From: a virus
DNA: 64,000 nt
Virus record (IMG/VR): IMGVR_UViG_2850695442_000001
Reading direction: 5' to 3' (one strand)
The notes under the pieces were generated by a model. It was not told the DNA's origin. It did not search any database and saw nothing but the letters and a program-made list of their open reading frames with translations. The translations under genes were made by a program, and so were the position numbers. This document shows positions 10,513 to 62,762 of this stretch, piece after piece. Each line of letters opens with the position of its first letter. The stretch's first letter is position 1.

Positions 10513-10550
10513 GGACTTGTTTTAAGCTCAAAAATTATTTTTGAGATAAT
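10513..10550 (+). promoter_or_regulatory. conserved bipartite promoter motif GGACTT-N26-GATAAT, copy 1
   Basis: aaGGACTTgttt...tgaGATAAT upstream of ORF 10568. Confidence 0.75.
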
Positions 10551-10567
10551 AAAAGTAGAGGCAAAAT

Positions 10568-11422
10568 TTGTTGTTAGAGGAGAAAATACACATGTTTGGT
10601 CAAAAAAAGAAAAATATCTTAGATGATTTAAACGAAGAATTGGTAGATAGCGCTGCTGAGGAAACGCAAGAAACACTTGAGGAATTAAAGCATATAGAAG
10701 AAACTGACAAAGCGGCGGCGAAAAAGGTTGAAGACGAACGCCTCCAACAGCAAGCAGAAACAGTACGTCAACAGGCAGAGAATGCCGAACGCCTTCGACA
10801 TCAAGAAGGGCTTGAGAAGCAAGAATATTTAGAACGTGAACGACAACAAGCCCGTGAAGCAGCTGAACGTCGCCAAAAAGAATTGGAAGCTAAACAGAGT
10901 CATATTACTTCTCCTCAAAAAGAAAAATTAGATAATTATCTACAACAGTTACAAGTCAAACAAAGTGAGATAGCAAAAACGGTAAATCTGTTTGAGTTAA
11001 TACCGGCTCTTCATGAAGCGAGTGAAAGTTCGATTGCAAAGTTTGAAGATGATGAGGTAAGTAAATTAGCTACTGAAATTCAAAAAATGGATAAACGAGT
11101 GGAATTGAAAGATAAGGCTAAAGAAGCATCACGCGCTCGCCAGGAAAAGGAAGTGTCACGTTTAGATGCATTCTATCATGCACAAGAGTTAGAGAGAATT
11201 GCCGAAGTTCAGCGCTATATAAAAAAACAGCGAGAGGAGGAGCAAGAAGCAGTTCGAGATGCTGAAGCAAATACACTGAATCAAACATTACTTGAAATCG
11301 AAAATACAGAAACTGAAAAATTGGATACTTACTCTAAAAATCAAACAGAGCGCATTCGCTTTGAAAAGAAACATTATCAAGAAATGTGTAAAGACTCACT
11401 CAACAAGATTTTGGGGAAGTAA
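10568..11422 (+). CDS. coiled-coil hypothetical protein
   Basis: E/Q/R/K-rich helical 284-aa ORF. Confidence 0.75.
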   Translation: MLLEEKIHMFGQKKKNILDDLNEELVDSAAEETQETLEELKHIEETDKAAAKKVEDERLQQQAETVRQQAENAERLRHQEGLEKQEYLERERQQAREAAERRQKELEAKQSHITSPQKEKLDNYLQQLQVKQSEIAKTVNLFELIPALHEASESSIAKFEDDEVSKLATEIQKMDKRVELKDKAKEASRARQEKEVSRLDAFYHAQELERIAEVQRYIKKQREEEQEAVRDAEANTLNQTLLEIENTETEKLDTYSKNQTERIRFEKKHYQEMCKDSLNKILGK

Positions 11423-11592
11423 TTATGAAGGGAAAAATTTCGCTATGACAGCTAAACACCAACAATTTAATTTTTTGCCTAATGACCCACAAAAAAAGAA
11501 AGCTACTTTGCGGGACATTACTACTAAAGATACAGGATGGTTCCAAAGTGATTTTAAGGCACGTATTGCTGCTCTAGGAAGTCAGGATAATC

Positions 11593-12315
11593 ATGCGACA
11601 ACGTAATAGTAATTATGAAAGTTCTCACGAAACACAGCGTGGTGCAAGTAAGGCACGCACGGAAGCCATGACGACTTATTTTACTCAGCCTTTAATTACA
11701 GTAGATACGCCTGAAACGATTGCCAAACGTTATCTTCCCGTCTCAGTACTTTCAAGACATGTGGAAGATTTCATGCAAGAAGAACGTGGCGAGGGTTGGG
11801 TTATGATAAATGACGAATTGTCTCAAGAAGAAAACTCACTTTTGTTAATGAAGGAACAATACTATGAGAAATATTTATATTATCAGAGTTTTTATAAAAG
11901 TCATGACCGCCGACTGAGCACCATGATGCCGCTCATTCGTATGCTTAAACATAGCACTTATGAAGGTTTGGCTGCTAAACAAAAACGAAATTCTATTATT
12001 TTTGGAAGTCTGTTAATTCTAAGCGCATTGATTATTCTCGCACTTTTGCGTGTTGTATTGGCTACACCATATACTTTACTAGCAAGTATATTTGTAGGCT
12101 TATTTTTGGGTGTTTTTTTAATCTTTCAGTATGCCTACAAGCAAGATGTAGAAGATTTACTCCTGGATGCTGAGGTGCGAGAAGTTTTAAATAAAAAGTT
12201 CCAATATATTTTAGGACAAATCTTTAGAAATGCTGTAAATAATATCCAAGAATTACCAAATGCAGAAGAAAAAATGGGAAAACGGAGTATTTTCCCGACA
12301 AAATTTGGGTCATGA
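11593..12315 (+). CDS. hypothetical membrane protein
   Basis: Two TM-like segments near the C-terminus. Confidence 0.7.
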   Translation: MRQRNSNYESSHETQRGASKARTEAMTTYFTQPLITVDTPETIAKRYLPVSVLSRHVEDFMQEERGEGWVMINDELSQEENSLLLMKEQYYEKYLYYQSFYKSHDRRLSTMMPLIRMLKHSTYEGLAAKQKRNSIIFGSLLILSALIILALLRVVLATPYTLLASIFVGLFLGVFLIFQYAYKQDVEDLLLDAEVREVLNKKFQYILGQIFRNAVNNIQELPNAEEKMGKRSIFPTKFGS

Positions 12316-12401
12316 TAAAATAATAATGTGAGATTTTATATCTTTATATCTTTATATCTTTGTACAACTTTTATTCTAGGTACGTTCTCCTAGAATATCT
12401 A

Positions 12402-12474
12402 AGCAGAGTAGAGCAATGGCAGCTCATCTGGTTCATACCCAGAATTGGTGATGGTTCGAGTCCATCCTCTGCAA
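12402..12474 (+). tRNA. tRNA-Met(CAU), initiator-like
   Basis: Cloverleaf: acceptor AGCAGAG/CTCTGCA with a 1:72 mismatch, D stem GAGC/GCTC, anticodon arm TCTGG-TTCATAC-CCAGA, T arm GATGG-TTCGAGT-CCATC. CCA is not encoded. Confidence 0.9.
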
Positions 12475-12479
12475 TTATT

Positions 12480-13055
12480 GTCTCATCTCGGTTATACAGG
12501 GCTTGATAACCCTCCGAGAGCCTTTCTAAGTATGCCCTTAGTGGTGTATGAAAGTAACCTTTGTAAGTTTTAGTGGTGATAACCCCTAAGCGCGAAGATT
12601 GAAGCGTGTGAGCGTGAATTTGCTAGTAAAAGCTAGTGTGAAATGGAAGGTGTGGCAATGTTTTATCACTTTAGTGCATTCTTCTTTTCGGTAGATAGAA
12701 TTATACGGTGGTTGTTGCGAAAACCACAAGCAGCCGTATAGCTCAGTGAGGCTTGCTCTAGCTGGCAAGGAAACCTGAGTATTGCTAAGCAATCTGCTGT
12801 GTCGTGAAACTGAGAAATCAGGGTATAAGAGAAGCGAGAAGTTCAAGTAGCCCAAGACACATACTCATAATAAAAACATTTACTAAATTATATGTTGAAA
12901 TCTGTATCGGGTGAAAGTTGGGAGATTTTGTTTCTCGCCCAATCATTAAAAGCAATAGGAGCTAAGAGAGTTGCTACTCTTAGTAGAGCCTGTTGGGATT
13001 GTCGCATAATTAAGAGGAGTAAAACATTGTTTGGAGAAAAACCGGGACAATATTT
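12480..13055 (+). ncRNA. large ornate structured RNA candidate (ROOL-like; GOLLD is the alternative)
   Basis: ~575-nt GC-richer segment between tRNAs with only weak RBS-less ORFs and many helices: CTCGG/CCGAG, TATACGG/CCGTATA, TGGTT/AACCA, CTCAG/CTGAG, CTTGC/GCAAG, TTGGG/CCCAA, CTAAGAG/CTCTTAG, ATTGTC/GACAAT. Size and tRNA context fit ROOL. Confidence 0.55.
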
Positions 13056-13056
13056 T

Positions 13057-13145
13057 GGAGAAATAGAATGTAATTTGGTATCAGGCTAGACTTGAAATCT
13101 AGCAATCGCAAATGCGGTGTGTCGGTTCAAATCCGACTTTCTCCT
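13057..13145 (+). tRNA. tRNA-Ser(UGA)
   Basis: GGAGAAA/TTTCTCC acceptor, CTAGA-CTTGAAA-TCTAG anticodon arm, long variable arm, GTCGG-TTCAAAT-CCGAC. Confidence 0.9.
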
Positions 13146-13222
13146 TTGCCATTGTGGCGCATTTACCTAGTTTTTGTTGTTATTGTTTTGGTAGGAATTT
13201 TGCTGAAAATCCTACCTCTCAT

Positions 13223-13295
13223 AGAGAAGTAGCTCAGCGGGGAGAGCAGTGGTTTTACACTCCATATGTCAGCGGTTCAAATCCGTTCTTCTCTA
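13223..13295 (+). tRNA. tRNA-Val(UAC)
   Basis: AGAGAAG/CTTCTCT acceptor, GCTC/GAGC D stem, anticodon loop TTTACAC (stem has a T.T mismatch), T loop TTCAAAT. Confidence 0.85.
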
Positions 13296-13389
13296 TAAGC
13301 GTCAAATCTATGCTAGTAGATTTGGTGGTATTCTAGCAGATGCAATTTAAGAGCGTTCGCTTCCTCTTTGACAAATCGGAAAGACGAAA

Positions 13390-13461
13390 GTGCTTGTAGC
13401 TCAATGGTAGAGTGTTGGCTTACAGAGCCAAAGGTTGTAGGTTCAAGTCCTACCAAGCATG
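13390..13461 (+). tRNA. tRNA with ACA anticodon (nominally Cys; Arg(ACG)-like body)
   Basis: GTGCTTG/CAAGCAT acceptor, TTGGC-TTACAGA-GCCAA anticodon arm, GTAGG-TTCAAGT-CCTAC T arm, G73. Confidence 0.85.
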
Positions 13462-13496
13462 TAGTTATCATGATGATTTTTGATAGCATAATAACT

Positions 13497-13570
13497 CTGA
13501 ATATGGCTCAGTTTGGTAGAGCACCTGTTTTGGGAACAGGAGAGCGCAGGTTCAAATCCTGCTATTCAGA
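13497..13570 (+). tRNA. tRNA-Pro(UGG)
   Basis: CTGAATA/TATTCAG acceptor, CCTGT-TTTGGGA-ACAGG anticodon arm, GCAGG-TTCAAAT-CCTGC. Confidence 0.92.
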
Positions 13571-13580
13571 TTTTACAAAT

Positions 13581-13651
13581 GGTTTTGCTCAACAGTCAGA
13601 GTATCCAAACAAATTTGGGTTGGATAGGAGTTCGATACTCACACAGAACCA
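13581..13651 (+). ncRNA. degenerate tRNA-like element
   Basis: GGTTTTG/CAGAACC 7-bp acceptor-like stem, CTC/GAG D-like stem, long TATCCAA/TTGGATA arm with an 11-nt loop, and GAG-TTCGATA-CTC T-like arm. Confidence 0.5.
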
Positions 13652-13679
13652 CTATATATTTAAGAAAGAAGTAAAAAGG

Positions 13680-14012
13680 ATGAGAGATACAAAATCATTA
13701 TTGCCTAAATTTGAATATTTCAAATCTCCGAAAAGCGGAAAACTTAGAAAAGTTAAAAATGGCTATTCTTGGACAGTTATGCTATTTGGAATAATTGTAT
13801 TATTATTTCGCAGAGAATGGAAAATTGCGGGTATTGCCGTAGCAATCATTATTGCCTTTTCTGGACTAATGGTCATGTTTCACTTAGATGGAGGCAATGC
13901 ACTATTGCTTGCAGGTTGGATTTTTTATGGCTTTAAAGCAAATGAGCAGCGTAAGCATGACTTGCTTAATGCTGGCTATGAATTAGTAGATATGCCAGAG
14001 AAAACGGAATAA
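13680..14012 (+). CDS. small membrane protein (DUF2628-like)
   Basis: True start is ATG 13680 after RBS AAGGA; contains GYSWTVMLFGIIVLLFRREWK. The upstream part of the track ORF runs over tRNA genes and is spurious. Confidence 0.65.
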   Translation: MRDTKSLLPKFEYFKSPKSGKLRKVKNGYSWTVMLFGIIVLLFRREWKIAGIAVAIIIAFSGLMVMFHLDGGNALLLAGWIFYGFKANEQRKHDLLNAGYELVDMPEKTE

Positions 14013-14178
14013 TGTTGCTCATGCAGCATTATTTTTTGAAGAATCAAGATGAATAACAGAAAACTGATTAAAACTCCATCACTACACGAAGGAGATGTAT
14101 TGAAAGTCAATAACCGGCTGGTGCGCGTAAAACTTACAGGTGTTGGTTGGAAATATGTTGAGTTAGGAGAGAATTACC

Positions 14179-14766
14179 ATGTCACAGTATCGCAGAAGCA
14201 AGAAAAATCAAAAAAATGAAGATTATTGGAATCGACCGGTCTTTGAAAAAAATAAAGTTGAAGAAAGAAAGCGAGTTGTTTATCTCAAAGATGAGGAGAT
14301 AAAGGATAAGAGAGGCAATAAAAAACATAGCAATCTTTTAATATGGTGGCTTCTATTTTTGATTTTCACGCTTATTCTTATACTTGTAGGAGTCGTAGTT
14401 TTCGCAACAAAGACACCGGCAGGACCGCAAACACAGAAGAATTTTGCGCAAGTAAGTGTAAAGAAAAGTAGCGCTAAGAAACACTTTTCAAGCAAAGATA
14501 CGATACAATCTTCTAGCTTAGATACAACGGAGATGACAGAAACGCAAGAAACACTTCCTAGTTCTTCTAATGTGCCTGAAATGTCATCTAATGCACCATC
14601 AGATACACCGACAAGTAGTTCAGGGAAATATACGTTAAAGACAGTTTCCTCATCAGGAAGAACAAGTATAACTTATTTTGATGATTTACAAAGTGCTATC
14701 AATCAGGGAATTGCTTTGGTGAATAGTGGACAAGCCATAAATTATTGGGTGACAAACTCAAATTAA
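14179..14766 (+). CDS. membrane-anchored Ser/Thr-rich protein
   Basis: Basic N-terminus, single TM, Ser/Thr-rich linker, small C-terminal domain. Confidence 0.7.
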   Translation: MSQYRRSKKNQKNEDYWNRPVFEKNKVEERKRVVYLKDEEIKDKRGNKKHSNLLIWWLLFLIFTLILILVGVVVFATKTPAGPQTQKNFAQVSVKKSSAKKHFSSKDTIQSSSLDTTEMTETQETLPSSSNVPEMSSNAPSDTPTSSSGKYTLKTVSSSGRTSITYFDDLQSAINQGIALVNSGQAINYWVTNSN

Positions 14767-14825
14767 GTTTAATAATACACAATTCGTTACATATTGCTAC
14801 AAATTGAGACAATTTGTGTTTGCTT

Positions 14826-16224
14826 TATGGAACAACACCGAAAAACTCGGTATTTTAATGCCGAGATGAAAGGTGCTTTACTGTTAATTTACCCGACGAC
14901 TTTTTTCCCATGAGATAATAAGAGAGGAAGTTGATACTTAACGAAAGGAAGAATAATAAATGGTTATACGAAAAATCGCTCAAAAAATACCTTTCAAACC
15001 AACAAAGAAGCAAATTCAGTTCTTTGCGGATTGTTTTGGTGCGAGAAGATTTGTGTATAACAGCCAAGTTGCTGTATTCAATACTTACTTTGAAGAAAAT
15101 AAGAAGTTAGTCTATCCTAAAATCACAGACCTTAAACATGAGAATGAGTGGTTAAGAGGAAGTGTTGTGCCTGCTCACAGTCTCTCTAATGCACTCATGG
15201 ATTTTGGTAAAGCTCGTTCTGCCTACTTCAAAAAGAAAAAGTATTCAAAAAATCGTCCTCGATTTCAAAGCCGTCACGATTACATTCAATCGTTCAGAAA
15301 TGGAATGCCTCTAAAAACAATTCGTGAAAACGGACGCTACCAACTTTCAAAGAAGCTAGGATATATTAAAATCCGTAAACGTGACAACCTCCGCTATCCT
15401 ATTGAACAGATGACCCAATGGACAGTCAAGCGTGAGGGCGACAAATACTATATCGTCTTCTTGTTCACGGTTGAAGTTGAAACGCAATCTGAAACCACTG
15501 GTGCAGTTGGTATTGACCTTGGCATTAAAGACTTCGCTATCACATCGGACGGCGAAAAAATAGATTTGCCTGAACAAATCGGAAAACTGGAAGCCAAAGT
15601 GATAAAAGAACAGCGTAAACTTTCACGAAAACAAAAAGGCAAAGGCAAGCAGTCGAACAACTTCTATAAGCAAAAAGCGAAGTTACAAAAGGCTCATGCT
15701 AAAGTTCGTCATGTTCGTGAGAACTTCCATCATCATGTGTCAAAACAGCTCGTTGAAGAAAACCAATTCATTGCTTTGGAAACATTGAGACCTTCTAATA
15801 TGATAAAGAACCACAAGCTGGCTCGTTCGATTGCACGAGCAGGCTGGCGACAATTCACCAATCAGTTGGAATATAAAGCTCAATGGTATGGACGTACCGT
15901 ACAACACGTGGGGCAATACTATGCAAGTTCAAAGACTTGTGGAAATTGTGGCATCATCTATCACGGTCTTAAACTTTCTGAAAGAGAGTGGACGTGTTCA
16001 GAGTGCGGCACCCATCATGACAGAGACCTTAACGCAAGCCAAAACATTCTCAAAGAAGCACAACGATTAGCTTCTTAAAATAAATACTTGTAATTGTTAA
16101 AGAACCGACCGACAATCGGGGATAGCTCGCTCAATATAAGAACCTCTGGCACACGGAAACAAATCCGGAGTCAAGTCTGCTTAGTTCGCGAGAATCTCGG
16201 TACTTTAGTACCGAGAATGTTCAA
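14826..16224 (+). mobile_element. non-autonomous IS200/IS605-family element (tnpB only)
   Basis: Left-end hairpin CTCGGTA-TTTTAA-TGCCGAG (14846-14865); right-end hairpin CTCGGTAC-TTTA-GTACCGAG followed by TTCAA (16220-16224). No tnpA. The left boundary is approximate. Confidence 0.8.
14960..16078 (+). CDS. tnpB: RNA-guided endonuclease TnpB
   Basis: Ruv[12 protein letters not shown], RuvC-II IALETL, Zn finger SSKTCGNCG...CSECG, Ruv[15 protein letters not shown]. The D-E-D triad is intact. Confidence 0.95.
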
Positions 16225-16559: not shown

Positions 16560-16597
16560 GGACTTGTTTTTGGTCAAAAAATTGTGCGTGAGATAAT
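16560..16597 (+). promoter_or_regulatory. GGACTT-N26-GATAAT motif, copy 2
   Basis: aaGGACTTgttt...tgaGATAAT, followed by ~850 nt with no ORF. Confidence 0.75.
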
Positions 16598-16603
16598 AAA
16601 CAG

Positions 16604-17445
16604 GTAAACATTTTATATACTATTCTATTTGACCTTAGGTCAGCCAGAACTCCGAAGCTTCGCTTTGGTGTATTGAGTTTCTTGTATGGGATATTTTTAT
16701 TGAAGGTTCACTCGTTGTGATATGCTTTGTCGATTTTATCGCCATTCTATCATTTCTTGATGTGTTCCCGCTCGGTTCAAATTTCTTCATTCAACACTTA
16801 ATTATCCATTGCAGCTTTTGTTAGAGGATAGGCAAATGAGAACGTGTGTTCTTATGAGGTAATATCGTGAGATATAGGTTTCTTGTGAAACTGTAAATTT
16901 TGATGCTATGTCATTTTTTACACCCAAGCACCAATAGCCGAAATTGAATTTAATGGGTTTGATTTTCTCGGTCAAACATCATGTTTCAATTTTAAAATGA
17001 ACAGCAATGATTTCCAAGTCTGGAAGTTGAGTGCATAAGAGAACTTGTACTGTTTTGTGAAAACAAGCAAAATCTGACTGTTCATCATTCAAATGTTCAA
17101 GTTAAAAACGTCCGATGTGGAATGGTTTAACCTGATTCATGATTAAGACAGCGTAACGTCCGGTGTGGAATTGACGTGTCACCCTAAGAAGTGGCTTGCA
17201 AGTGGTTCTTGCGTCTTAACAAGTTGAATGTAATTAAAATTTCTGTTGAGCTAGTATTCAGAAGAGAACAGATTTTATCTGTCTGATAATGAGCGAAAGT
17301 GTAGTGTACAAGAGTACATCCAGTTTTACAAGAGGCAATAGAACAAAATGTTCGTTAGTGCGTGGCATTTGTTTGTAGTTGTCCAAAGCATTTATTGTTT
17401 TTAAACACATAAGGGTCAACGTACCATACGTTTTTGCCCTTATGG
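16604..17445 (+). ncRNA. candidate large structured non-coding RNA (or structured ssDNA element)
   Basis: No ORF of 60 aa or more on either strand, and consecutive nested multi-branch helices (see findings). Confidence 0.45.
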
Positions 17446-25477: not shown

Positions 25478-25717
25478 GAAGAAAGTACAATCATGTTTAA
25501 TCAATATACAACACAAAAAGGAATAACTGTTACTGAATTAGTTTCAGGGTCACTCTGGATTGTTAATAATGGAAAATTACAATTTAAGTTTACTAATATC
25601 ATTGATTTTGTTCGGTATATGACAAAAGTGAAATGAATTTAAATTGGTAATCCCTCATGGGACTCACAGCGAGTGGCTGATTGTCCCGAGGGGGCGTTAT
25701 CTCGAAAGGAGAGGCAA

Positions 25718-25945
25718 ATGGTTACTGTTTATTCAAAAAACAACTGTATGCAATGCAGAATGGTTAAAAAATTTTTAACTGAACATGATGTTACTTTCAA
25801 AGAAATCAACGTAGATGAGAATCCTGAGTTTATTGCTCATTTAAAAGATGACCTTAATTTCATGGCAACCCCTGTTGTTGAAACTGAAAACATCGCTTTT
25901 TATGGTTTTGCGCCTGATAAGCTGAAAGCATTAGCAAACAATTAA
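25718..25945 (+). CDS. nrdH: glutaredoxin-like NrdH-redoxin
   Basis: MVTVYSKNNCMQC (CxxC)...TPVV...GFAPDKL; RBS AAAGGAG. Confidence 0.92.
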   Translation: MVTVYSKNNCMQCRMVKKFLTEHDVTFKEINVDENPEFIAHLKDDLNFMATPVVETENIAFYGFAPDKLKALANN

Positions 25946-30451: not shown

Positions 30452-30489
30452 GGACTTTTTACTCGATGAAAAATTTTCAATGAGATAAT
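30452..30489 (+). promoter_or_regulatory. GGACTT-N26-GATAAT motif, copy 3
   Basis: Upstream of the operon containing ORF 30526 and the Spx-like gene. Confidence 0.75.
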
Positions 30490-30525: not shown

Positions 30526-31350
30526 ATGGCAAGTCCAAGTTATCAAAAGAAATTAAAAAGTGCTGTTCAGCGCTATAAAGTTCAGCAGATTAAGAAAACA
30601 TCTAGGGAAGAAAATAATAAAGAGATTAAAGAAAAATGGCTCAATCAAGAATTGATGACTCCTGTTATTCCGAATATGCCACGATGTCCAAAAAATGTTG
30701 ATGAATATCTGTATTTATTAACTATTCAGTATGGAATGGCTAATAAGGGAACAAAAAACACCAATGACCGGCGTGATATTCTCTCGAATTATAGTGGCGC
30801 TTGGATTGGAGTGGAAGGTTATGTGACGGATGCTAAAATCTTTAATGGAGTCATGCGACTTTGTATTTCGCTTCCGAGACTTGATACTTTTGATGCTAAC
30901 TCTGGCAAAATTATTGATAGCCATGTCTGGATTAAAATGAGTGATTTTCAATACAGTGATATTGATGATGGACGAATTACGAATCAAGCAATGTACGAGA
31001 GCGAAGAAAGCGTGGATGGTGCCATAAGTCTAGGAGATTTCGTCCAATTTGTTGGATTGGTTTATCCTTATGTCACAGGAAAAAAAGTGAAATATGGCTT
31101 CAATAAATTTAAAAGGATTAGCCGTGGGGGGCTAAAATTTGTTGTTGAATCTAAAAAAGGAAAGAAACAACGAATTGTTGATTCGCGTTATCCAAGATTG
31201 GGTTATTTGATTAAAGCACATCATATCCCTGGAACGAATAAATTTGCTTATCGTTTTGCAAATTGGAATGAAATTAATAAACAAAAAGAGAAATTAGAAA
31301 ATTTGTATAATGCTTACAAATTGAAAAATGGGGTTGGGGAAGAAGCATGA
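30526..31350 (+). CDS. hypothetical basic protein
   Basis: 274 aa, Lys-rich. Confidence 0.7.
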   Translation: MASPSYQKKLKSAVQRYKVQQIKKTSREENNKEIKEKWLNQELMTPVIPNMPRCPKNVDEYLYLLTIQYGMANKGTKNTNDRRDILSNYSGAWIGVEGYVTDAKIFNGVMRLCISLPRLDTFDANSGKIIDSHVWIKMSDFQYSDIDDGRITNQAMYESEESVDGAISLGDFVQFVGLVYPYVTGKKVKYGFNKFKRISRGGLKFVVESKKGKKQRIVDSRYPRLGYLIKAHHIPGTNKFAYRFANWNEINKQKEKLENLYNAYKLKNGVGEEA

Positions 31351-32061: not shown

Positions 32062-32099
32062 GGACTTGTTTTAGGTGTTTTTTTCTTTTTTGAGAAGAT
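32062..32099 (+). promoter_or_regulatory. GGACTT-N26-GAAGAT variant, copy 4
   Basis: aaGGACTTgtttt...tgaGAAGAT upstream of the topoisomerase. Confidence 0.6.
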
Positions 32100-34234: not shown

Positions 34235-34272
34235 GGAATTCTTACACGAAGAAAAAGCAATCATGAGATAAT
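34235..34272 (+). promoter_or_regulatory. GGAATT-N26-GATAAT variant, copy 5
   Basis: cGGAATTcttacacga...tgaGATAAT, similar to the 59222 copy. Confidence 0.65.
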
Positions 34273-34867: not shown

Positions 34868-34905
34868 GGACTTGTTTCCTGAAAAAAATAGAGCTATGGG
34901 ATAAT
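34868..34905 (+). promoter_or_regulatory. GGACTT-N26-GATAAT motif, copy 6
   Basis: GGACTTgtttcctgaaaaaaatagagctatggGATAAT, almost identical to the 46117 copy. Confidence 0.75.
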
Positions 34906-37912: not shown

Positions 37913-39324
37913 TGTAAAGGGTCATGCTAAAATGTAGGAAAAAGGTCATTGAAAATGTAGGTTGAAGCGTAAACATGATATGCTTTTCTTACTCAATCCA
38001 AAGGAGGATTTGTTTGAGAAAAGACATCCTAGAAAGGCTCAGCTTACATTTTATGACTGACACTAAACCTAATTTCGCAGCCCTTGCCAGACGATATAAT
38101 TGTGATTATCGTACCGTCAAACGTTACTATGAACTCGGACAAGAACAAACCCTACAAGAAGCTTCTCGGCGCAATGTTCCGCCCACATTAATTGAAAATT
38201 TCAAGACCCTCATCAATGAAAAAGTTGAATTAGGATGTTCCGCTCGTTCTATTTTCTACCTCATTCAAAAACGAGGTTATAGTGGGAGTTATGTCACAGT
38301 CAGACGTTACGTGAAATCTTGTAAAGTAACCAAGCAACATAAAGCAACTGTTCGTGTAGAAACTTCTCCTGGACTTTCCGCTCAAGTCGATTGGAAAGAA
38401 AACCTCAAGATGACTTCTAAAAATGGAGAAGTATTCACGGTCAATATTTTTCTCTATGTGCTTGGCTACTCACGCATGAAATACCTTCAACTGACAACCA
38501 GCCGTGAACAGCCTATCCTATTTGACTGCTTGAACAACGCTTTCTTTGAACTCGGTGGAGTTCCTGAAGAAATATGGTTTGATAACATGAAAACCGTCGT
38601 TGACCATTCAAAGAGCCAATTCACTCATGCTGTATTCAACGAAACCTTCCGACAATATGCGAAGGATGCTGGATTTCAATTTCAACCCAAACTCAAAAAG
38701 ACAGACATCGTTGATTTGCATACGCTGCGTTTCTTGGACAATCATGACAATATTCTTTTTGTTGGAAATAGTGGTGTGGGTAAAACACATTTAGCCATTT
38801 CTCTGGCTTTAGAAGCTTTGGATAAAGGACACAGCTCTTATTTTATTCTCAGTAATGAACTGGTCAATAAGTTGCTTAAAGCCCAACAGCGTGGCGCTTT
38901 AGAACGTGCATTAAAGCAATACGCCAACTATGATTTACTCATTATTGATGAGATGGGTTATCTTCCTTTTTCCAGAGACGGCGCTACGTTGTTGTTTCAG
39001 CTTATCAATGCCCGATATGAGAAAAAATCCACCATTATTACCACCAATATTCCCTTGTCGCAATGGTCAGAGTTCTTACAAGATAAGAAATTAACGAATG
39101 CTTTATTAGACCGCTTAGTTCATCATTCTAAAGTTATTCCGATTACAGGTAATTCTTATCGAATGAAAGATTATAGCGAAAGAAAAACAAGGGTAGTCAC
39201 CACAAAGAAATAGAAAATATAGGGAGATTAAATCCGACATAATGACCCAAAAACTACATTTTCGATGACCATTTCCCTACATTTTCAATGACCAAAAAAC
39301 TACATTTTTACGTGACCCTTGACA
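37913..39324 (+). mobile_element. internally deleted IS21-family element (IS712-like)
   Basis: IRL TGTAAAGGGTCATGCTAAAATGTAG; IRR (reverse complement) TGTCAAGGGTCACGTAAAAATGTAG; multiple subterminal CTACATTTT..TGACC repeats; only 1412 bp. No target duplication seen. Confidence 0.85.
37975..39213 (+). pseudogene. in-frame IstA(N)-IstB(C) fusion
   Basis: IstA HTH NFAALARRYNCDYRTVKRYY, QVDW, WFDNMKTVV up to DAGFQ, then IstB FQPK...GNSGVGKT, LLIIDEMGY, LLDRLVHH. Confidence 0.85.
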
Positions 39325-39707
39325 AGCCAAATGATACTCAATTGAAAAAAGTTGCTTGGGAGCTAGGAACTTCAGTCGATTATTTATTGGGAGAGGTTGA
39401 TGAATCTCCGAAATTTGTAAAATTTGACAAAGAGGAGAAAGAAAATTTTTATCAAATTTTTCGAGGAAATTTAGATAAGCTATCAGAACAATTGTCAAAT
39501 CATGACATTACAAAAGAAGAATTTGAAAAGCAAGAAAAAATGATATTAGAATTTCTTGAAGAAGCTCCAGATGTAGAAGTTCGTAGTACAATTATTGGCT
39601 CATACCTTATTGCAGAAACAAGTAGGGGTAAAAATTTTACTTTTAATTTTGAAAATATGGAACAAAAAGAAACTGATGATGAAAATAATAGAGATAAATT
39701 AGGATAA
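39325..39707 (+). pseudogene. 5'-truncated XRE-family regulator
   Basis: LKKVAWELGTSVDYLLG is the end of an XRE HTH. The track ORF start lies inside the IS end, and the N-terminal half is not found at the left IS flank. Confidence 0.65.
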
Positions 39708-39847: not shown

Positions 39848-40123
39848 ATGGGAACATCAAGAATTAGTTCTGATATCATGACCGCACAGAGTGCAATTTC
39901 TAGGTTGACAGGAATTGAAGCTTCAGGGATTCAAAATGAACATCTTGAATTTGCAGGAAGTAATATTCCATGCATGAAAGCAGGGAAGAATCTGAACAAT
40001 CAAATACTTAAAGATGTGAGCGAACTCGTTACTTGTATTCAAAAGCAAGCAGATAAAGTTGAAGGACTAGCCCAGGCAATAGAATATCGAGATAAAGCTG
40101 ACGCTAATAGTTGGGGATTCTAG
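39848..40123 (+). CDS. small T7SS-associated WXG100-like protein (TIGR04197-like)
   Basis: 91 aa, ISSDIMTAQSAISRL start, helical; first gene of a three-gene LXG cassette. Confidence 0.65.
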   Translation: MGTSRISSDIMTAQSAISRLTGIEASGIQNEHLEFAGSNIPCMKAGKNLNNQILKDVSELVTCIQKQADKVEGLAQAIEYRDKADANSWGF

Positions 40124-40124
40124 T

Positions 40125-40481
40125 ATGAGAGATAAAAGTGCAGATGAACGAGTGATGTTAGGACGTGAAATTCTTTTCAAAGAAAATCAAATTGACGAAA
40201 TCAACCGAGAATATCAAAATCAAGAGAGTCAACTTGAACGTTTTCATAGTGAAATGAATCGTTTATTTAATGCAGAACAAGAATTGTATGCCCAAGCTCA
40301 ACAAGAGGGAGAAAATACAAGCTGGAAAGAGGCAGAATTTCAAGCGGTTAGTCAAGAAGTTCAGCGTGTTGTTTTTACCGAATCGGAACTCATTCATCAA
40401 GGTTACAGTCAAGCTCGACTGACAATTCAAGATGATATTGACCAACTTCATAAAGAGAGGAATGCTTTGCCGTGGGATTAA
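40125..40481 (+). CDS. LXG-associated helical accessory protein (DUF3958-like)
   Basis: 118-aa E/Q-rich coiled coil immediately before the LXG gene. Confidence 0.6.
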   Translation: MRDKSADERVMLGREILFKENQIDEINREYQNQESQLERFHSEMNRLFNAEQELYAQAQQEGENTSWKEAEFQAVSQEVQRVVFTESELIHQGYSQARLTIQDDIDQLHKERNALPWD

Positions 40482-42004
40482 AGTATAATAAAAATGACGG
40501 TCAACTTTTCATTTCGGCTATGAATCATAATGTTTCAAGTGCGAATGAAATCGTAAGTCGATTAAAAGACGGAAGCGACCATTTAATTAGTATGGTAAAT
40601 GGCGGTTCAGCTCAATTATCAGGAAAAGCTTATAATGCAGTTGGAACACTTTTTACAAGTCTAGTTCAACCTGTGCTTTCAAAATTAGAGTCAGCAACAG
40701 AAGATATCAAAAATGATATTCAAGTTTTTCAAGCTCAAAGCTCTGCCTTTAATGCTTTTAATGATACGATTTATGATGAAGATAGATTAAATCAATTAAA
40801 AGAGATTAAACAACAACAGCAAGCAACAGTTGTGGCTCAAATTGGCATGTTCAATAGTACCTTGTTAGGAGATTTAGCAAAAAATGTAGCCGAAGCACTC
40901 TTTTATGAGGGGAAACGATTAGAGAATGTCGCCGAGCATTATGCCAATGAAATTAGAGAAATTGATGATAAACTTCGAATTTTACATGAGTTTTCTTCAA
41001 GTACTAGTCATTTGTTTCAAGACAGTTTAACTGTTTTTCAAAGTGCTATGCAAGGGGTTAAGGCACTTAATCAAGGACGATTTGATTCTAATGGTAATTT
41101 TTCAATACCAAACAATTCTAGTATGGATTGGTATAAAACACTCACAAATCAAAAATTGGATTCAGCCTTAGTTTCAGATGATGAAGCAGAACGAGAAGAA
41201 CTACTCAAAGGACTTGATGTTAAAGGCTTGACAGATAAAGACCGAGATAAATATGAGTCGTCAGTTTCAGATATCCTCAAGACACTACAGAAACAGGGGT
41301 GGACGAAAGAGGGGCTTGAAGCTTATCTCAAAACCTTAGCGACAATCAATTCAAATAGTCATTCTGCAGGAGATGTTTTTCCAATAGATTCTTTGATTGA
41401 AAATGCACAATTAATGAAATTCTTATTGGACAATGCGAGTCATCTTGATGTTTCGAAATATGTTGAGAAAGGTTGGGAGTGGGAGAAGACAAATACTTAT
41501 TATTTTATCAATGGGGAGCCAAACTTTGTTTTAACACAACTAGGCGCATATCTTCCAAATTTTAAAGTGACCAAACAAGCCAGTCCAGAAGAAATGGCAA
41601 GTGTATCTAAAGTTGTGGAGGATAAAGTTGTTGCCCCAGGGGAAAGCCAAGCATTATTGATTGCGGATACTATTTTAGAAGAGTCAGAATTACTTAAAAT
41701 AACTGATAGTGAAGTATTTATAAAGGCATTAGGTGGTAAAACATATACAGAAAACACTAATTTCGTATATAATTTTTCTTCTGAAACAAAAGGTTACAGT
41801 GCTGCTAAAAAAGAATTTGATAGTATGAATTTATCTAATGTTAGAATATATAATCAAGGAACTGATAAAGAAACAATAGTGGGAAAACTCTCAAATGGGG
41901 ATACGGTCAATCTTCATACCTCATCATCGAAAAATATTGGGGAACCTCCATCTATTGAAATTTATGACCCAATTACTAAAAAGAAAATTAAAATAAGGTT
42001 TTAG
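40472..42004 (+). CDS. LXG-domain polymorphic toxin (T7SS effector)
   Basis: N-terminal LXG-type region (QLSGKAYNAVGTLFTSLVQP...IYDEDRL...KLRILHEFSSSTSHLF), linker, and a compact variable C-terminal domain ending PSIEIYDPITKKKIKIRF. Confidence 0.8.
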   Translation: MGLKYNKNDGQLFISAMNHNVSSANEIVSRLKDGSDHLISMVNGGSAQLSGKAYNAVGTLFTSLVQPVLSKLESATEDIKNDIQVFQAQSSAFNAFNDTIYDEDRLNQLKEIKQQQQATVVAQIGMFNSTLLGDLAKNVAEALFYEGKRLENVAEHYANEIREIDDKLRILHEFSSSTSHLFQDSLTVFQSAMQGVKALNQGRFDSNGNFSIPNNSSMDWYKTLTNQKLDSALVSDDEAEREELLKGLDVKGLTDKDRDKYESSVSDILKTLQKQGWTKEGLEAYLKTLATINSNSHSAGDVFPIDSLIENAQLMKFLLDNASHLDVSKYVEKGWEWEKTNTYYFINGEPNFVLTQLGAYLPNFKVTKQASPEEMASVSKVVEDKVVAPGESQALLIADTILEESELLKITDSEVFIKALGGKTYTENTNFVYNFSSETKGYSAAKKEFDSMNLSNVRIYNQGTDKETIVGKLSNGDTVNLHTSSSKNIGEPPSIEIYDPITKKKIKIRF

Positions 42005-42977: not shown

Positions 42978-43015
42978 GGACTTGTTTTAAGTCCTTTTTT
43001 TCTTTGTGGGAAAAT
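42978..43015 (+). promoter_or_regulatory. GGACTT-N26-GAAAAT variant, copy 7 (overlaps inverted repeat AAGGAC..GTCCTT)
   Basis: aaGGACTTgttttaagtcctttttttctttgtggGAAAAT. Confidence 0.65.
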
Positions 43016-46116: not shown

Positions 46117-46154
46117 GGACTTATTTCCTGAAAAAAATAGAACCGTGAGATAAT
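46117..46154 (+). promoter_or_regulatory. GGACTT-N26-GATAAT motif, copy 8
   Basis: aaGGACTTatttcctgaaaaaaatagaaccgtgaGATAAT. Confidence 0.75.
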
Positions 46155-49678: not shown

Positions 49679-49716
49679 GGACTTTTACCCCCGTCCTTTT
49701 TTCTTTGTGAGAGAAT
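49679..49716 (+). promoter_or_regulatory. GGACTT-N26-GAGAAT variant, copy 9
   Basis: aaaaGGACTTttacccccgtccttttttctttgtgaGAGAAT. Confidence 0.65.
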
Positions 49717-50875: not shown

Positions 50876-50913
50876 GGACTTGTTTTAAGCTCCTTTTTTA
50901 ATTTTGGGATAAT
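50876..50913 (+). promoter_or_regulatory. GGACTT-N26-GATAAT motif, copy 10
   Basis: Upstream of the pilin-like gene. Confidence 0.75.
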
Positions 50914-51512: not shown

Positions 51513-51550
51513 GGACTTGTTTGAGTCCTTCTTTTGTGTTGCGAGATAAT
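51513..51550 (+). promoter_or_regulatory. GGACTT-N26-GATAAT motif, copy 11 (perfect inverted repeat AAGAAGGAC/GTCCTTCTT)
   Basis: Upstream of ORF 51658 and the virB6-like gene. Confidence 0.75.
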
Positions 51551-54359: not shown

Positions 54360-54397
54360 GGACTTGTTTCAAGCTTCTTTTTTTATTTTGAGATAAT
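54360..54397 (+). promoter_or_regulatory. GGACTT-N26-GATAAT motif, copy 12
   Basis: Upstream of the trsD-like/virB4 operon. Confidence 0.75.
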
Positions 54398-57149: not shown

Positions 57150-57152
57150 CGC

Positions 57153-58049: not shown

Positions 58050-58058
58050 GAGAAGAAA

Positions 58059-58511: not shown

Positions 58512-58645
58512 AAAATATCAGCCCATTCATTGCTGGCTGATATTTTTGTAAGGTTACCCGGCATAAAAAATAATAGGCGATAATGTTATGAGGATAGAAA
58601 AATTGCAATAAAAGTTTGGCTCAACCATGCGGATAGTCAGGCTAA

Positions 58646-58683
58646 GGATTTGTTTGGGACTTGTAATATTTTTATGGTATAAT
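58646..58683 (+). promoter_or_regulatory. GGATTT-N26-TATAAT variant, copy 13
   Basis: aaGGATTTgttt...tggTATAAT upstream of ORF 58713. Confidence 0.7.
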
Positions 58684-58712
58684 GATGCGTTTGCCAATTT
58701 TTTGGCGAGAAA

Positions 58713-59028: not shown

Positions 59029-59221
59029 ATCAGAAACAAAAAAAGCAGAGAGTGATTGCAAAAGACAATCATTATCTGCTTTTTCCTTTGCCTAAAGGTT
59101 ACAAAGGGACTTTCAGAATACCACAAGTTCTTATTTTTTACAAGTAAGTGTTCATTCTATGTGAGAAACATTTTATTCCTCCTATTTTTCTTTCTTTAGT
59201 GCTTGAAAATGGTACTACAGC

Positions 59222-59259
59222 GGACTTCTTACCCGACAAAAGAAAAGACATGAGATAAT
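59222..59259 (+). promoter_or_regulatory. GGACTT-N26-GATAAT motif, copy 14
   Basis: Upstream of the intein-helicase. Confidence 0.75.
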
Positions 59260-59292
59260 AATAGAAAAAGCATAAGAAAGAATAAGTTTGAT

Positions 59293-62200
59293 ATGGATTT
59301 GATTAAAGAATTGGATATTAAAAATGATGTTCCTTCCGTAAAATTGCGCTATTATCAAGAAGAAGCGAAAGCTGCGATTGAAGCAGAATGGGAAAAAGGC
59401 AACAAAAGAACCCTAGTTGTTATGGCAACAGGGTGTCATAGAGTCGGTGAAGGTCTTTTAATGGCTGATGGAACTGTTCAAAAAGTTGAAAATATCAAAG
59501 TTGGTGATAAATTATTAGGGGGTGACGGCTCTCCTCGTACAGTATTAAAACGGCATGAAGGAGAAGATGAAATTTATGAGATTAAACCTATCAAAGGAAA
59601 AAGTTTTTTTGTAACAGGGAATCATAAACTAACTTTGGTGAAAACAAGAAGGCGTGGAGATAATTCGCCACAGTATCCATCTTATCAGTATGATGCTTCT
59701 TTTGTAGATGTATCAGTAGATGATTGGCTTTCATGGGGTAAAACACAAAAGCATATCCATAAATTAGTTAGAACAACAGGGGTTGAATTTCTAAATAAGG
59801 TTACTTTACCTCTTCCCCCTCATTTTCTTGGTGTTCTTCTTGGAGATGGTGGCTTGAAGTATCAGTTAAATGTGACTACTATGGATGAAGAAATTGTTGA
59901 AGAACTCATTAATCAAACTAAGGCACTTAATATGGAGCTTAGTCATACACCTGCTGGACGAGCAAAAACATATAAATTTTTAGATAATCATAAGCACAAT
60001 AATAAATTAAGAAATATTTTAGATACTTTAGATTTAACTGATAAAGGCTCAGAAGAAAAATTTATTCCACAAATTTACAAAACTGCATCTACGCAAGATA
60101 GACTAGAATTAATTGCAGGATTATTAGATACAGATGGAAGTTTAAGCAATACAACTTATGATTTTACATCTAAATCAAAACAATTAGCAGAAGATTTGGT
60201 ATTTCTTTGTCGCTCGGTTGGTTTAGCCGCTTATATGTCTGAAGCTAAAAAAGGAATAAAAAGTTTAAATTTTGAAGCAATTTATTGGCGTGTATGTATT
60301 AGTGGAAATACTGATAGAATTCCATGTAGAGTAGCGCATAAAATTGCTTCCAAAAGAAAACAAAAGAAAAATGTACTTAGAACAGGTTTTACTGTGACTC
60401 CTGTTGGAAAAGATAATTATGTTGGTTTTACAGTAGATGGAGATAATCGTTACTTACTAGATGATTTTACGATTACTCATAACTGTGGCAAAACGATAGT
60501 CATGGCAAAGGTCGCGGAAGAACAACAACGTCTTCATCCAGACAAACAAATTTTAGTGCTTGCTCACCGTGGAGAACTGCTAAATCAAGCAATGAATAAA
60601 TTTGAAAAAGCAACAGCACTTACCACTGTAAAAGAGAAAGCCCAAGAGACAAGTATTGGTTCGGAAGCACAAGTCGTTGTTGCTTCTGTTCAAACCATGA
60701 AAAATGATAAACGTCTGCATCAATTTGACCCAGAACAGTTTAGCACCATTATGGTCGATGAGACACATCATATTATGGCAAAGATGTACCGCAAAGTCAT
60801 TGACTATTTCCCCAATGCGAATATGTTAGGTGTCACAGCGACAGCTGACCGGACAGATAAATTAGATTTAGGAGAAGTATTTGACAGTGTTGCTTATGAG
60901 TACGATTTAGCAACAGCTATTAAGGACGGCTATCTTTCTCCATTAACCGCTCAGACTATTCCAATTAATATTGATTTAAACGGCGTACATATGAAAGCAG
61001 GAGATTTTAATGAATCTGAACTTGATGATGTTTTAGGACCTTATTTAGAACGAATCGCAGATGAAATGGTCCTCGCGTGTGAAGGACGACAAACAGTCGT
61101 TTTTATGCCGTTGATTGCGACTTCCAAACGTTTTGTGGATATCCTAAATAAAAAAGGCTTTCGTGCTGCTGAGGTCAATGGACAATCTAAGAATCGGGAT
61201 ACCATTCTCAAAGATTTTGAAAATCGGAAATATGAAGTGTTGGTGAATGCCATTTTGCTTACTGAAGGTTGGGATTGTCCGACTGTGGATTGTATTGTTA
61301 TGCTTCGTCCAACCAAAAGCCGAAGTCTTTATGCACAGTGTATTGGGCGGGGAACTCGCTTATCGCAAGGAAAAAAAGAGTGCCTTATTTTAGATTTTCT
61401 CTGGAATAGTTCTAAGCACGCACTCTGTCATCCTGTTTCGCTTCTTACCAAAAATGAAGCACTGGTACATAATGCGTCACTCCTCGCACAAAATGGCGAA
61501 CCAAAAGCTGTTGACGAGTTAGTTGAAGAAGCGAAAGAAGAATATAAAAAAGCACAATATGCACAGTTGACACGAGAATTAGAAGCTCTTTCTATTCGGC
61601 GCCGTCGGAAAAAGCTTGACCCTTTTGAAATTTTTCTAGGGAATGCGAATGGTGTGGATTTCTCTGATGAAACCCAGAAAATGACAATGAGTCAAAATCA
61701 AAAAAACTGGTTGGATAGTAATAATATAGATACTTCTTTGATTAAAACCTACGCACAAGCTGAGAGTTTAATCAATCAATTAACACATCGTGAACCAGAC
61801 CAAGCTACGCTGAAGCAAGTGAAACTTCTTAAAGATAAAGGATTTAAACAGGCTGACCAATGGACAAAAGTAGAAGCGTCCGAAGTCATAGGAAAAATAG
61901 CAGAAAACTTCTGGGAAGTGCCACGCTCAATCCATCCAAATACATATCAACCAAAACGCTTAGAAAATATTGAAAATAAAGAGAATTCTTCCTCAATACA
62001 ACACTCTGAGATAAAAGAGCGTATTAAAAAATTTGATAAACTGATAGAAAAGCAATTTTTAGAGTTGATTGCATCTGATAAAGAAGTGACAGCTAATGAT
62101 AAGTTACGAAAAGCCATGCTTCAAGCCATGATGGAAGAAAAAAGCAACAGAGTAACGGCAATAAAACGAGCCTTTTTACAGAAAAAATCTCAAAAAGAAA

Positions 62201-62706
62201 TAGATGGTATTGTTTATCAAGAAAACAAAGAATTTTACACTCAAACGAAGGAAGCTTGGAAAGTCTCAGAAGAAAAGCTTCGACAAGAAAAACGGCGAGA
62301 AGCCCGCAAAAAGGAGCGGGTGAAAAAAGAACAAAAGCAAAAAGAAAAAATCATAAGTCGAGAAAAAGCCGAAGAAGTCAGCAAGGCGCGTGAAGATAAA
62401 ATTAAAGAGTTGTTTCCTGATGAATGGTACTTAGTTAAAGCACTTAATGGACGATGGATGAAAAAATATAAAGGGCGGATTACTGCTATCGCTCTTACAA
62501 AACGTGAAGGGGATTATTATGTGAGAGTCCACATTTCTGATTTTAATAAGAAAACATTCAAGGAAAGAAAAAAAAAACAAATTATTGACCATTTCTATGG
62601 GTTTAGCTCTGAAGTGCATTTTAGAGGCGAAAAGCATCTCTCTATTCCGATTTCAACACTCAAAGAATTTTTTTACAAGGAGACAGTGGTAGCAGCCATT
62701 TTGTGA
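59293..62706 (+). CDS. DEAD/DEAH-box SF2 helicase (phage/type III Res-like) containing an intein
   Basis: After splicing: ATGCGKT Walker A, VDETHH, TATADRTD, LTEGWD, YAQCIGRGTR; long basic C-terminal extension. Confidence 0.9.
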   Translation: MDLIKELDIKNDVPSVKLRYYQEEAKAAIEAEWEKGNKRTLVVMATGCHRVGEGLLMADGTVQKVENIKVGDKLLGGDGSPRTVLKRHEGEDEIYEIKPIKGKSFFVTGNHKLTLVKTRRRGDNSPQYPSYQYDASFVDVSVDDWLSWGKTQKHIHKLVRTTGVEFLNKVTLPLPPHFLGVLLGDGGLKYQLNVTTMDEEIVEELINQTKALNMELSHTPAGRAKTYKFLDNHKHNNKLRNILDTLDLTDKGSEEKFIPQIYKTASTQDRLELIAGLLDTDGSLSNTTYDFTSKSKQLAEDLVFLCRSVGLAAYMSEAKKGIKSLNFEAIYWRVCISGNTDRIPCRVAHKIASKRKQKKNVLRTGFTVTPVGKDNYVGFTVDGDNRYLLDDFTITHNCGKTIVMAKVAEEQQRLHPDKQILVLAHRGELLNQAMNKFEKATALTTVKEKAQETSIGSEAQVVVASVQTMKNDKRLHQFDPEQFSTIMVDETHHIMAKMYRKVIDYFPNANMLGVTATADRTDKLDLGEVFDSVAYEYDLATAIKDGYLSPLTAQTIPINIDLNGVHMKAGDFNESELDDVLGPYLERIADEMVLACEGRQTVVFMPLIATSKRFVDILNKKGFRAAEVNGQSKNRDTILKDFENRKYEVLVNAILLTEGWDCPTVDCIVMLRPTKSRSLYAQCIGRGTRLSQGKKECLILDFLWNSSKHALCHPVSLLTKNEALVHNASLLAQNGEPKAVDELVEEAKEEYKKAQYAQLTRELEALSIRRRRKKLDPFEIFLGNANGVDFSDETQKMTMSQNQKNWLDSNNIDTSLIKTYAQAESLINQLTHREPDQATLKQVKLLKDKGFKQADQWTKVEASEVIGKIAENFWEVPRSIHPNTYQPKRLENIENKENSSSIQHSEIKERIKKFDKLIEKQFLELIASDKEVTANDKLRKAMLQAMMEEKSNRVTAIKRAFLQKKSQKEIDGIVYQENKEFYTQTKEAWKVSEEKLRQEKRREARKKERVKKEQKQKEKIISREKAEEVSKAREDKIKELFPDEWYLVKALNGRWMKKYKGRITAIALTKREGDYYVRVHISDFNKKTFKERKKKQIIDHFYGFSSEVHFRGEKHLSIPISTLKEFFYKETVVAAIL
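59434..60483 (+). mobile_element. intein with LAGLIDADG homing endonuclease (350 aa)
   Basis: Starts CHRVGEGLLMADG, contains FVTGNHKL (block B), LGVLLGDG and IAGLLDTDG, ends FTITHN, followed by the C+1 Cys. Confidence 0.95.
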
Positions 62707-62724
62707 TAAAGCAGATACATAAAA

Positions 62725-62762
62725 GGACATTTTTCTCGTCCTTTTTTTTCTTGTGGGATAAT
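62725..62762 (+). promoter_or_regulatory. GGACAT-N26-GATAAT variant, copy 15 (inverted repeat AAAAGGAC/GTCCTTTT)
   Basis: Upstream of the antirepressor. Confidence 0.7.

Follow-up and report, generated by a model that had tools for sequence, protein, structure and literature searches.

In Gram-positive bacteria, the control of conjugation is known mostly from single derepressed operons, as in ICEBs1, where one derepressed promoter (Pxis) drives one long operon. Another layout is found in phage T4, the middle promoters of which lack a -35 and combine a good -10 with a fixed box centred at -30 that is read by the polymerase-bound protein MotA, with AsiA remodelling region 4 of the sigma factor. 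The elements SXT/R391 and IncA/C of Gammaproteobacteria encode the activators SetCD and AcaCD, respectively, FlhDC-like heteromers that use a repeated 19-bp box immediately upstream of a missing -35 at many promoters for xis/int and transfer operons; such boxes are also present on defective or satellite islands (PMC4344509). Spx of Bacillus subtilis lacks a classical DNA-binding domain, and its complex with RNA polymerase requires the sequence -45 AGCA -42, of which the positions -44 and -43 are the most predictive (PMC3479203). According to cryo-electron microscopy, the Spx monomer binds the polymerase alpha subunit's C-terminal domain (alphaCTD) as well as sigmaA and wraps around an 'extended -44 element' (-46 to -37) (PMC8501982). 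Here we describe a repeated promoter motif in the virus record IMGVR_UViG_2850695442_000001 of IMG/VR, a stretch of 64,000 nucleotides (the window) belonging to an integrative conjugative element (ICE) of a Lactococcus-like chromosome, together with an Spx-like protein of this element as the candidate activator.

The sequence GGACTT-N26-GATAAT was detected nine times without mismatch in the window, exclusively on the + strand, against a mean of 0.01 in shuffled sequences. The earlier note on this DNA had listed 15 copies, and their exact spacing could be confirmed throughout: the six variant copies keep it with one or two mismatches in the hexamers (Table 1). Alignment of the 15 sites revealed that the two hexamers are only part of a fuller motif, AAGGACTTnTT-N19-TGrGATAAT, in which an upstream block (A-A-G-G-A-C-T-T-g-T-T-T) is followed by a spacer holding either a T-run or an A-run and by an extended -10 (T-G-r-G-A-T-A-A-T). 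With GATAAT taken as -12 to -7, and the transcription start site (TSS) thereby assumed, the upstream box covers -46 to -36 and TGrGATAAT covers -15 to -7. This conserved block bears out the proposal that the box lies where an activator linked to alphaCTD would act. In a logo of 44 instances from five lineages, the upstream half reads A/g at -46, A/c at -45, then G-44, G-43, A-42, C-41, T-40, T-39, T-37 and T-36, and the downstream half T-15, G-14, A/g-13, G-12, A, T, A, A, T-7. G-43 is present in 43 of the 44 instances, -45 to -42 reading AGGA, and the G at -12, which is unusual, in 41.

The spacing is invariant also under a relaxed -10 pattern. GGACTT and TG were separated by N23 in 15 matches of the element and in six of a relative on a JGI contig (see below), and no other spacing from 14 to 33 was found in these two. 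As had been claimed, there is no consensus -35, since the mean of the best TTGACA matches at 16-18 bp, 2.8/6, equals the background level. TGnGATAAT is threefold enriched in the element, TGnTATAAT being the dominant form on the chromosome. At the window sites, all copies precede ORFs (open reading frames) of the + strand, and a start codon with a Shine-Dalgarno (SD) sequence follows 20-41 nt past the -10. The statement that all 15 copies are intergenic and on the + strand holds for the strand, but three of them (32062, 34868 and 58646) lie inside naive long ORF calls; at 32062 and 58646 a better SD/ATG start was found immediately 3' of the motif. A reading of the motif as a sigmaH-like or sigmaB-like promoter, a ComX cin-box or a ComK box was rejected on the grounds of sequence and spacing. 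There is no homology to MotA/AsiA either, and the element box is located one helical turn further upstream than that of the T4 middle promoters.

The window corresponds to C1:187379-251378 of the 2.76-Mb genome G000, which was scanned completely with a position weight matrix, copies of at least 25 bits being counted as strong. We detected 23 strong copies, all of them within C1:186308-295971 and 22 of them on the + strand. Fifteen are located in the window, seven to its right and one, the sole copy on the minus strand, just to its left; a weak 24th copy (22 bits) lies in the window. No comparable site was found in the other 2.6 Mb of the chromosome nor on the two small contigs. The 15 copies listed before are thus all real, but the set was incomplete, because the element exceeds the window. 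The minus-strand copy heads xis and the tyrosine integrase gene. The genes headed by the other copies include those for a topoisomerase, PlyCA-like and NlpC/P60 hydrolases and a pilin-like protein of the type IV secretion system (T4SS). Copies likewise precede genes for DUF8208, TraC-like and VirB4-like (AAA_10) proteins, for an SNF2 helicase with an intein and for the AntA/ANT antirepressor, as well as those for a TraG-like coupling protein, a protein resembling Replic_Relax, an LPXTG adhesin and a sortase. The assignment of the motif to T4SS, hydrolase, topoisomerase, helicase and antirepressor units was therefore correct and can be extended to xis-int.

The comparison with the AcaCD/SetCD master switches made in the earlier note is apt in architecture. 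In both cases a repeated box stands upstream of a missing -35 at many promoters, and these serve xis/int and transfer operons; in G000 the boxes are confined to the element. An activator encoded by the element itself would be a further common trait, for which we have a candidate. In contrast to SetCD/AcaCD, we deal with a Firmicute host and an Spx-like candidate, the site is of a 12-bp monomer type and the promoters carry an extended -10; there is no sequence relationship to the SetCD/AcaCD system. No FlhDC-like domain was found among about 70 element proteins scanned against Pfam, a scan that included no search aimed at FlhDC.

The element itself extends over about 115 kb (G000 C1:184642-299684). 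This size follows from a 17-bp direct repeat (CTTATGTGCTCTTTTTT) which brackets it at C1:184642-184658 (L001:14642) and C1:299668-299684 (L004:8290). The left repeat forms the 3' end of the gene for the small RNA of the signal recognition particle (Rfam RF00169, L001:14571-14667), indicating insertion into ffs. Besides the direct-repeat ends, the element possesses a tyrosine integrase, a VirB4-like ATPase (AAA_10) and a TraG/TrwB-like coupling protein, as is typical of an ICE; the relaxase candidate shows only a weak match to Replic_Relax. The left end comprises, in this order, the tyrosine integrase gene and a Xis-like ORF of 75 aa, which lie directly 3' of the minus-strand motif, a gene for a 241-aa protein, an M78 protease gene, a Cro/CI repressor gene and a switch region. 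A Cro/CI repressor and an M78 protease beside int at the left end, with divergent canonical promoters, are shared with the ImmR-ImmA systems of ICEBs1 and ICESt3. Unlike in ICEBs1, about 24 dedicated promoters, that of xis-int among them, form an interposed second tier here.

Three distant intact relatives and one decayed remnant keep the motif between genes at syntenic positions. The DUF8208 protein has a single homologue (47% identity) among 5.8 billion proteins, encoded on an 87-kb JGI contig. The 73 kb of this contig that were examined are syntenic with the element, with proteins about 47-70% identical, and contain ten motif copies, all on the + strand and with exact spacing (local consensus G-C-G-G-A-C-T-T). 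Across nine orthologous intergenic pairs of G000 and this JGI relative, the box is 80% and the extended -10 88% identical, compared to 30% in the upstream and 37% in the downstream flanks. Copies at exact spacing were also found on short Logan contigs of the lineages L054 and L058/L059. Downstream of copy 2 (window 16598-17445), the ~30 nt that directly follow the -10 (GTAAACATTTTATAT...) are near-identical in the JGI relative with diverged flanks, which fits a conserved transcript starting there.

Outside these lineages the motif is very rare. It is absent from 19 congeners apart from genome G010, about 800 related genomes of the family and order contained at most single chance matches (G010 excepted), and from about 185,000 species genomes as well as from metagenome and viral contigs a stricter form of the motif retrieved nothing beyond singletons at chance level, in agreement with a matrix rescan. 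In a search for near-identical relatives in plasmid and phage collections, IS21 alone matched. G010 carries at C3:~4000-36000 (L005, L006) an inverted remnant of about 30 kb with seven motif copies, including a motif-xis-int arrangement, and with adhesin/sortase genes. The remnant looks decayed: the relaxase-like genes are split, and the T4SS and early genes are for the most part missing. By analogy with the boxes on satellite islands of the SetCD/AcaCD systems, an intact element may be able to activate in trans this island, which has seven boxes but lacks an activator gene. From its sequence, specificity and conservation we conclude with high confidence that the motif represents a real, element-specific and deeply conserved promoter class.

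Copy 3 heads an operon of two genes, encoding a 274-aa protein and an Spx-like protein, which implies autoregulation. The Spx-like protein matches the NCBIfam Spx model over its full length (E=4e-18), TIGR01617 (Spx/MgsR) with E=2.6e-8 and Spx chains of the PDB with E of about 1e-11, and Pfam ArsC gave no match at E<=0.01. Its AlphaFold2 model (mean confidence score pLDDT 85) retrieved Spx structures on ranks 1-8 of a Foldseek search of the PDB, with TM scores (by target) of 0.74-0.82 and 28% identity; arsenate reductase (ArsC) structures reached only 0.55-0.70. As judged by this model, the protein has the Spx fold and is nearer to Spx than to arsenate reductases. In the alignment to 3GFK/3IHQ, its residues Leu45, Gly51, Ile75, Glu76, Leu81 and Val84 occupy the positions of Leu46, Gly52, Val71, Glu72, Leu76 and Leu79 of Spx. 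In B. subtilis, Gly52 is essential to the alphaCTD contact, and Arg60, Lys62, Arg91/92 and Thr11/Ser12 touch the DNA (PMC8501982). With these residue roles, the alignment indicates that the glycine and the hydrophobic patch for alphaCTD contact are kept, and Gly51 does not vary among 12 relatives. The C-terminal block is kept as well, and so are Arg60/Lys62, with a 5-residue insertion before Arg60. The host rpoA C-terminal domain carries the segment V-R-x-Y-N-x-L-K-R.

In each of the four intact lineages the Spx-like gene and the motif occur together, the pair with the 274-aa gene standing behind or beside motif copies in G000, in the JGI relative (Spx-like protein 44% identical), in L054 and in L058/L059. 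In L058 (9315-9881) and L059 (1048-1614), a gene for a 188-aa protein with three helix-turn-helix (HTH) regions is situated just 5' of the 280-aa/Spx-like pair. This sigma-region-4/GerE-like protein was rejected as the conserved factor, as neither G000 nor the JGI relative encodes a homologue; the other early HTH proteins and the DnaD-like protein of G000 have no counterpart in the JGI relative. The Spx-like sub-clade is tiny. A profile search of 1.84 billion representatives yielded two proteins below 1e-30, followed by P0005, the L054 protein. The remoter Spx-like proteins P0006 and P0008, which were discarded, are encoded beside SNF2 helicases on short contigs without the motif. The AlphaFold2 model of the 274-aa protein has a pLDDT of 38. 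No simple pattern emerged when the bases at -46/-45 (AA or GC) were compared with the N-terminal residues of the Spx-like proteins.

These data lead us to propose a dedicated -35-less promoter class of the ICE with the Spx-like protein as its most likely activator, a reading to which we assign a probability of roughly 0.55. Each copy would be an extended -10 promoter that the host sigmaA polymerase uses only with a polymerase-bound activator reading AAGGACTTnTT. The activator would be the redox-blind Spx-family protein, possibly together with the coupled 274-aa protein. By analogy with B. subtilis Spx, which at trxA/trxB (PDB 7F75) sits as a monomer on alphaCTD and sigmaA at a non-palindromic element (-46 to -37), the Spx-like monomer would dock on both subunits and wrap the '-44 element'; the box at -46 to -36 occupies the position of the Spx footprint. 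The fixed orientation, the non-palindromic box and the invariant spacing would then result from a monomer locked on the holoenzyme. Dependence on this protein and its polymerase contacts are what we infer, as are the TSSs. In the proposed sequence of events, the CI/ImmA-type switch would control the early genes from ordinary promoters, the Spx-like operon behind its own motif copy would provide positive feedback, and the regulon would be turned on, comprising xis-int, the T4SS, the cell-wall hydrolases, the coupling protein and relaxase-like genes as well as adhesin/sortase, topoisomerase, helicase and antirepressor genes.

The element protein shares with Spx the fold and the equivalents of Leu46, Gly52, Glu72 and Leu76, but differs from it in the absence of CxxC and RPI, in the 5-residue insertion and in being always paired with the 274-aa gene. 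The box is longer and far more conserved than the weak chromosomal Spx signature, GGACTT being near-invariant, and the promoters differ from those of Spx by the missing -35 and by G-12 in the extended -10; they form the regulon of a mobile element rather than a thiol-stress response. It is conceivable, at somewhat less than even odds, that a mobile element has captured and rewired Spx, stripping its redox switch and changing its DNA contacts to obtain a private specificity factor that lets the host sigmaA polymerase use about 24 -35-less promoters; the entire 115-kb element, excision included, would then obey one activator riding on alphaCTD. The altered DNA-contact residues would fit an altered specificity.

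Several observations weigh against the Spx-like protein as activator. It remains under the curated cut-offs of the family models (NF002459, 65.6 versus 123 bits; TIGR01617, 34.1 versus 75). CxxC is lost, with Lys and Ile at the two Cys positions, and so is RPI, the Arg92 of which reads DNA in B. subtilis, Gly-Leu-Phe standing at Arg-Pro-Ile and His at the Arg91 position; Arg60 is not kept in the JGI orthologue. The AGCA core of Spx promoters (G-44, C-43) is replaced by AGGA, and the sigmaA -35 box (TTGac) kept in canonical Spx promoters is missing. G010 has no orthologue of the Spx-like gene despite its seven motif copies, though its element looks decayed. As the Spx-like gene itself lies behind a motif copy, another factor must prime it. 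The conserved 274-, 283- and 351-aa proteins, with no family assigned, are possible readers of the box.

Alternatively it might be that one of these three proteins reads the box, either as a class II activator or as a sigma factor too divergent to be recognised, and the Spx-like protein is otherwise employed, e.g. in anti-alpha interference, Spx proteins being also anti-activators (PMC3479203). The 274-aa gene is linked to the motif as tightly as the Spx-like gene, the 283- and 351-aa proteins are products of conserved early genes without a family match, the Spx-like protein no longer has the RPI motif that reads DNA, and the invariant spacing together with G-12 resembles recognition by a specificity subunit of the holoenzyme. 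Yet the 26-bp gap between the hexamers exceeds the known -35/-10 recognition by sigma-70-family factors, and none of the three proteins matches a sigma or HTH family. Genome-wide searches with TIGR02937 and PF08281 found no sigma-70-family gene in the element, all matches lying outside it; the sole sigma match within the element (E=0.6) falls in the Xis-like ORF. The 283-aa gene, located 3' of a gene for an actin-like protein (ALP), more likely encodes a segregation adaptor. Because, in addition, the position of the box is that of the published Spx footprint (PMC8501982), we consider another reader within the element rather unlikely. That no factor of the element is involved at all, the promoters being constitutive and GGACTT being read by a host Spx paralogue or by alphaCTD as an odd UP-like element, appears improbable. 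An extended -10 with TGn can work without a -35, the chromosome encodes about 11 Spx/ArsC paralogues, and G010 retains its copies without the Spx-like gene. AGGA at -45 to -42 is moreover only one base off the canonical AGCA (PMC3479203). However, the lack of any comparable site in the remaining 2.6 Mb of the chromosome indicates that no host regulon uses the box, which contains G+C and is not UP-like. G-12 weakens the -10 compared with TATAAT, the form commoner on the chromosome, as would fit promoters silent until activated, and expressing xis and the T4SS constitutively would come at a cost.

The earlier note had also suggested that copies could act as terminators, and this is true for about 13 of the 23 copies in G000, which fold into a hairpin (-6 to -15 kcal/mol; positions -6 to +22 of each copy folded) followed by T6-T8. 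With GGAC(TT) as the 5' arm, the copies differ in their 3' arms in a compensatory manner that keeps the pairing. One could therefore regard the repeat as mainly a family of intrinsic terminators, or as an RNA-level element spread in the ICE, in which the -10-like sequence is incidental. We hold this to be very improbable, as the remaining ~10 copies have no hairpin and contain an A-run instead, but keep the box and its exact distance to TGrGATAAT; the promoter reading is thus the common denominator of both classes. Furthermore, within the footprint conservation is highest in the -10 (88%), SD sequences and start codons follow at promoter-like distances, and the xis-int copy has no upstream gene of the same orientation to terminate. 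Under the promoter reading, the hairpin copies, about half of the set, would be insulated terminator-promoter cassettes.

Table 1. Motif copies and regulatory genes of the element, with positions in the window (position 1 is its first nucleotide).
Feature	Position	Strand	Remarks
M78 peptidase (ImmA-like anti-repressor protease)	3..866	-	5' part beyond window
Cro/CI-type repressor (ImmR-like)	879..1208	-	conserved in JGI relative
Divergent switch region	1249..1449		canonical sigmaA promoters, 11/12 and 12/12 consensus matches, unlike motif promoters
Motif copy 1 (exact)	10513..10550	+	heads 284-aa and 240-aa genes; 47.5 bits
Weak variant copy (GGAGTA...TGATAAAAT)	12284..12321	+	5' of tRNA array; 22 bits; tentative
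Motif copy 2 (exact)	16560..16597	+	heads ~840-nt ORF-free stretch, first ~30 nt kept in JGI relative
Motif copy 3 (exact)	30452..30489	+	heads 274-aa/Spx-like operon
274-aa protein, fold unassigned	30526..31350	+	translationally coupled to Spx-like gene; pair kept in four lineages
Spx/MgsR-family protein, divergent, 147 aa	31347..31790	+	no CxxC, no RPI, Gly52 region kept; candidate activator
Motif copy 4 (-10 GAAGAT)	32062..32099	+	heads topoisomerase, real start ~32122
Motif copy 5 (GGAATT)	34235..34272	+	heads small ORFs 3' of topoisomerase
Motif copy 6 (exact)	34868..34905	+	precedes RRXRR/HNH gene block
Motif copy 7 (-10 GAAAAT)	42978..43015	+	terminator hairpin -11.7 kcal/mol and T7; heads PlyCA-like hydrolase
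Motif copy 8 (exact)	46117..46154	+	heads 81-aa and thioredoxin-like genes
Motif copy 9 (-10 GAGAAT)	49679..49716	+	terminator hairpin; heads NlpC/P60 hydrolase
Motif copy 10 (exact)	50876..50913	+	hairpin; heads T4SS pilin-like gene
Motif copy 11 (exact)	51513..51550	+	terminator hairpin -14.8 kcal/mol; heads 115-aa and DUF8208 767-aa genes
Motif copy 12 (exact)	54360..54397	+	heads TraC-like, VirB4-like (AAA_10) and subsequent genes
Motif copy 13 (GGATTT/TATAAT)	58646..58683	+	weakest of the 15; heads ~101-aa ORF
Motif copy 14 (exact)	59222..59259	+	heads 1137-aa SNF2/ResIII helicase with intein
Motif copy 15 (GGACAT)	62725..62762	+	terminator hairpin; heads AntA/ANT antirepressor

Further genes were recognised in the window. 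The early region contains the actin-like (ALP/ParM-type) gene followed by the conserved 283-aa gene (1824-3938) and a gene for a DnaD-like protein of 477 aa (6115-7548), which suggests that the element, once excised, replicates and segregates autonomously. Five tRNA genes form an array at 12402-13571 (Met, Ser, Val, one with the anticodon ACA assigned to Cys by ARAGORN, and Pro). A second short ArsC/glutaredoxin-like ORF (25673-25945, 90 aa) matches the N-terminal half of TIGR01617, and the corresponding region of the JGI relative contains a glutaredoxin gene. The 1137-aa helicase (59293-62706) carries its intein near the N-terminus, with a Hint domain at residues 48-117 and a LAGLIDADG homing endonuclease at 264-340.

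The element is interrupted by a TnpB/IS605 OrfB gene (14960-16078) and by an IS21-family insertion (istA/istB, 37975-39707), which is about 78% identical to lactococcal IS712-like copies. A cassette of three genes (39848-42004; 91, 118 and 510 aa, with a weak LXG match) recurs as a divergent copy in G010, and L058 encodes an LXG protein; the cassette may be a polymorphic-toxin module of these elements. Absent from G000 is a cluster of YcaO, nitroreductase, ABC transporter and LytTR genes, which the JGI relative carries between T4SS-associated genes (L046:9090-14972) and which is probably responsible for a thiazole/oxazole-modified peptide.

In the literature we found neither an Spx-type regulator of a conjugative element or phage nor a second-tier master-activator regulon in an ICE of Firmicutes, as it is known in SXT/IncC of Proteobacteria. 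Should the Spx-like protein be the activator, Spx biology would reach from stress to the control of mobile-element genes, and a natural Spx with a sharp, information-rich DNA target would be available that helps to understand how Spx and alphaCTD read DNA. For lactic acid bacteria, the motif and the candidate activator would provide a compact orthogonal promoter/activator pair. The motif itself is a marker by which members of this poorly sampled element family can be found and delimited. If the proposed regulation is true, decayed or satellite relatives that keep the boxes, e.g. the island in G010, could be switched on by an incoming element.

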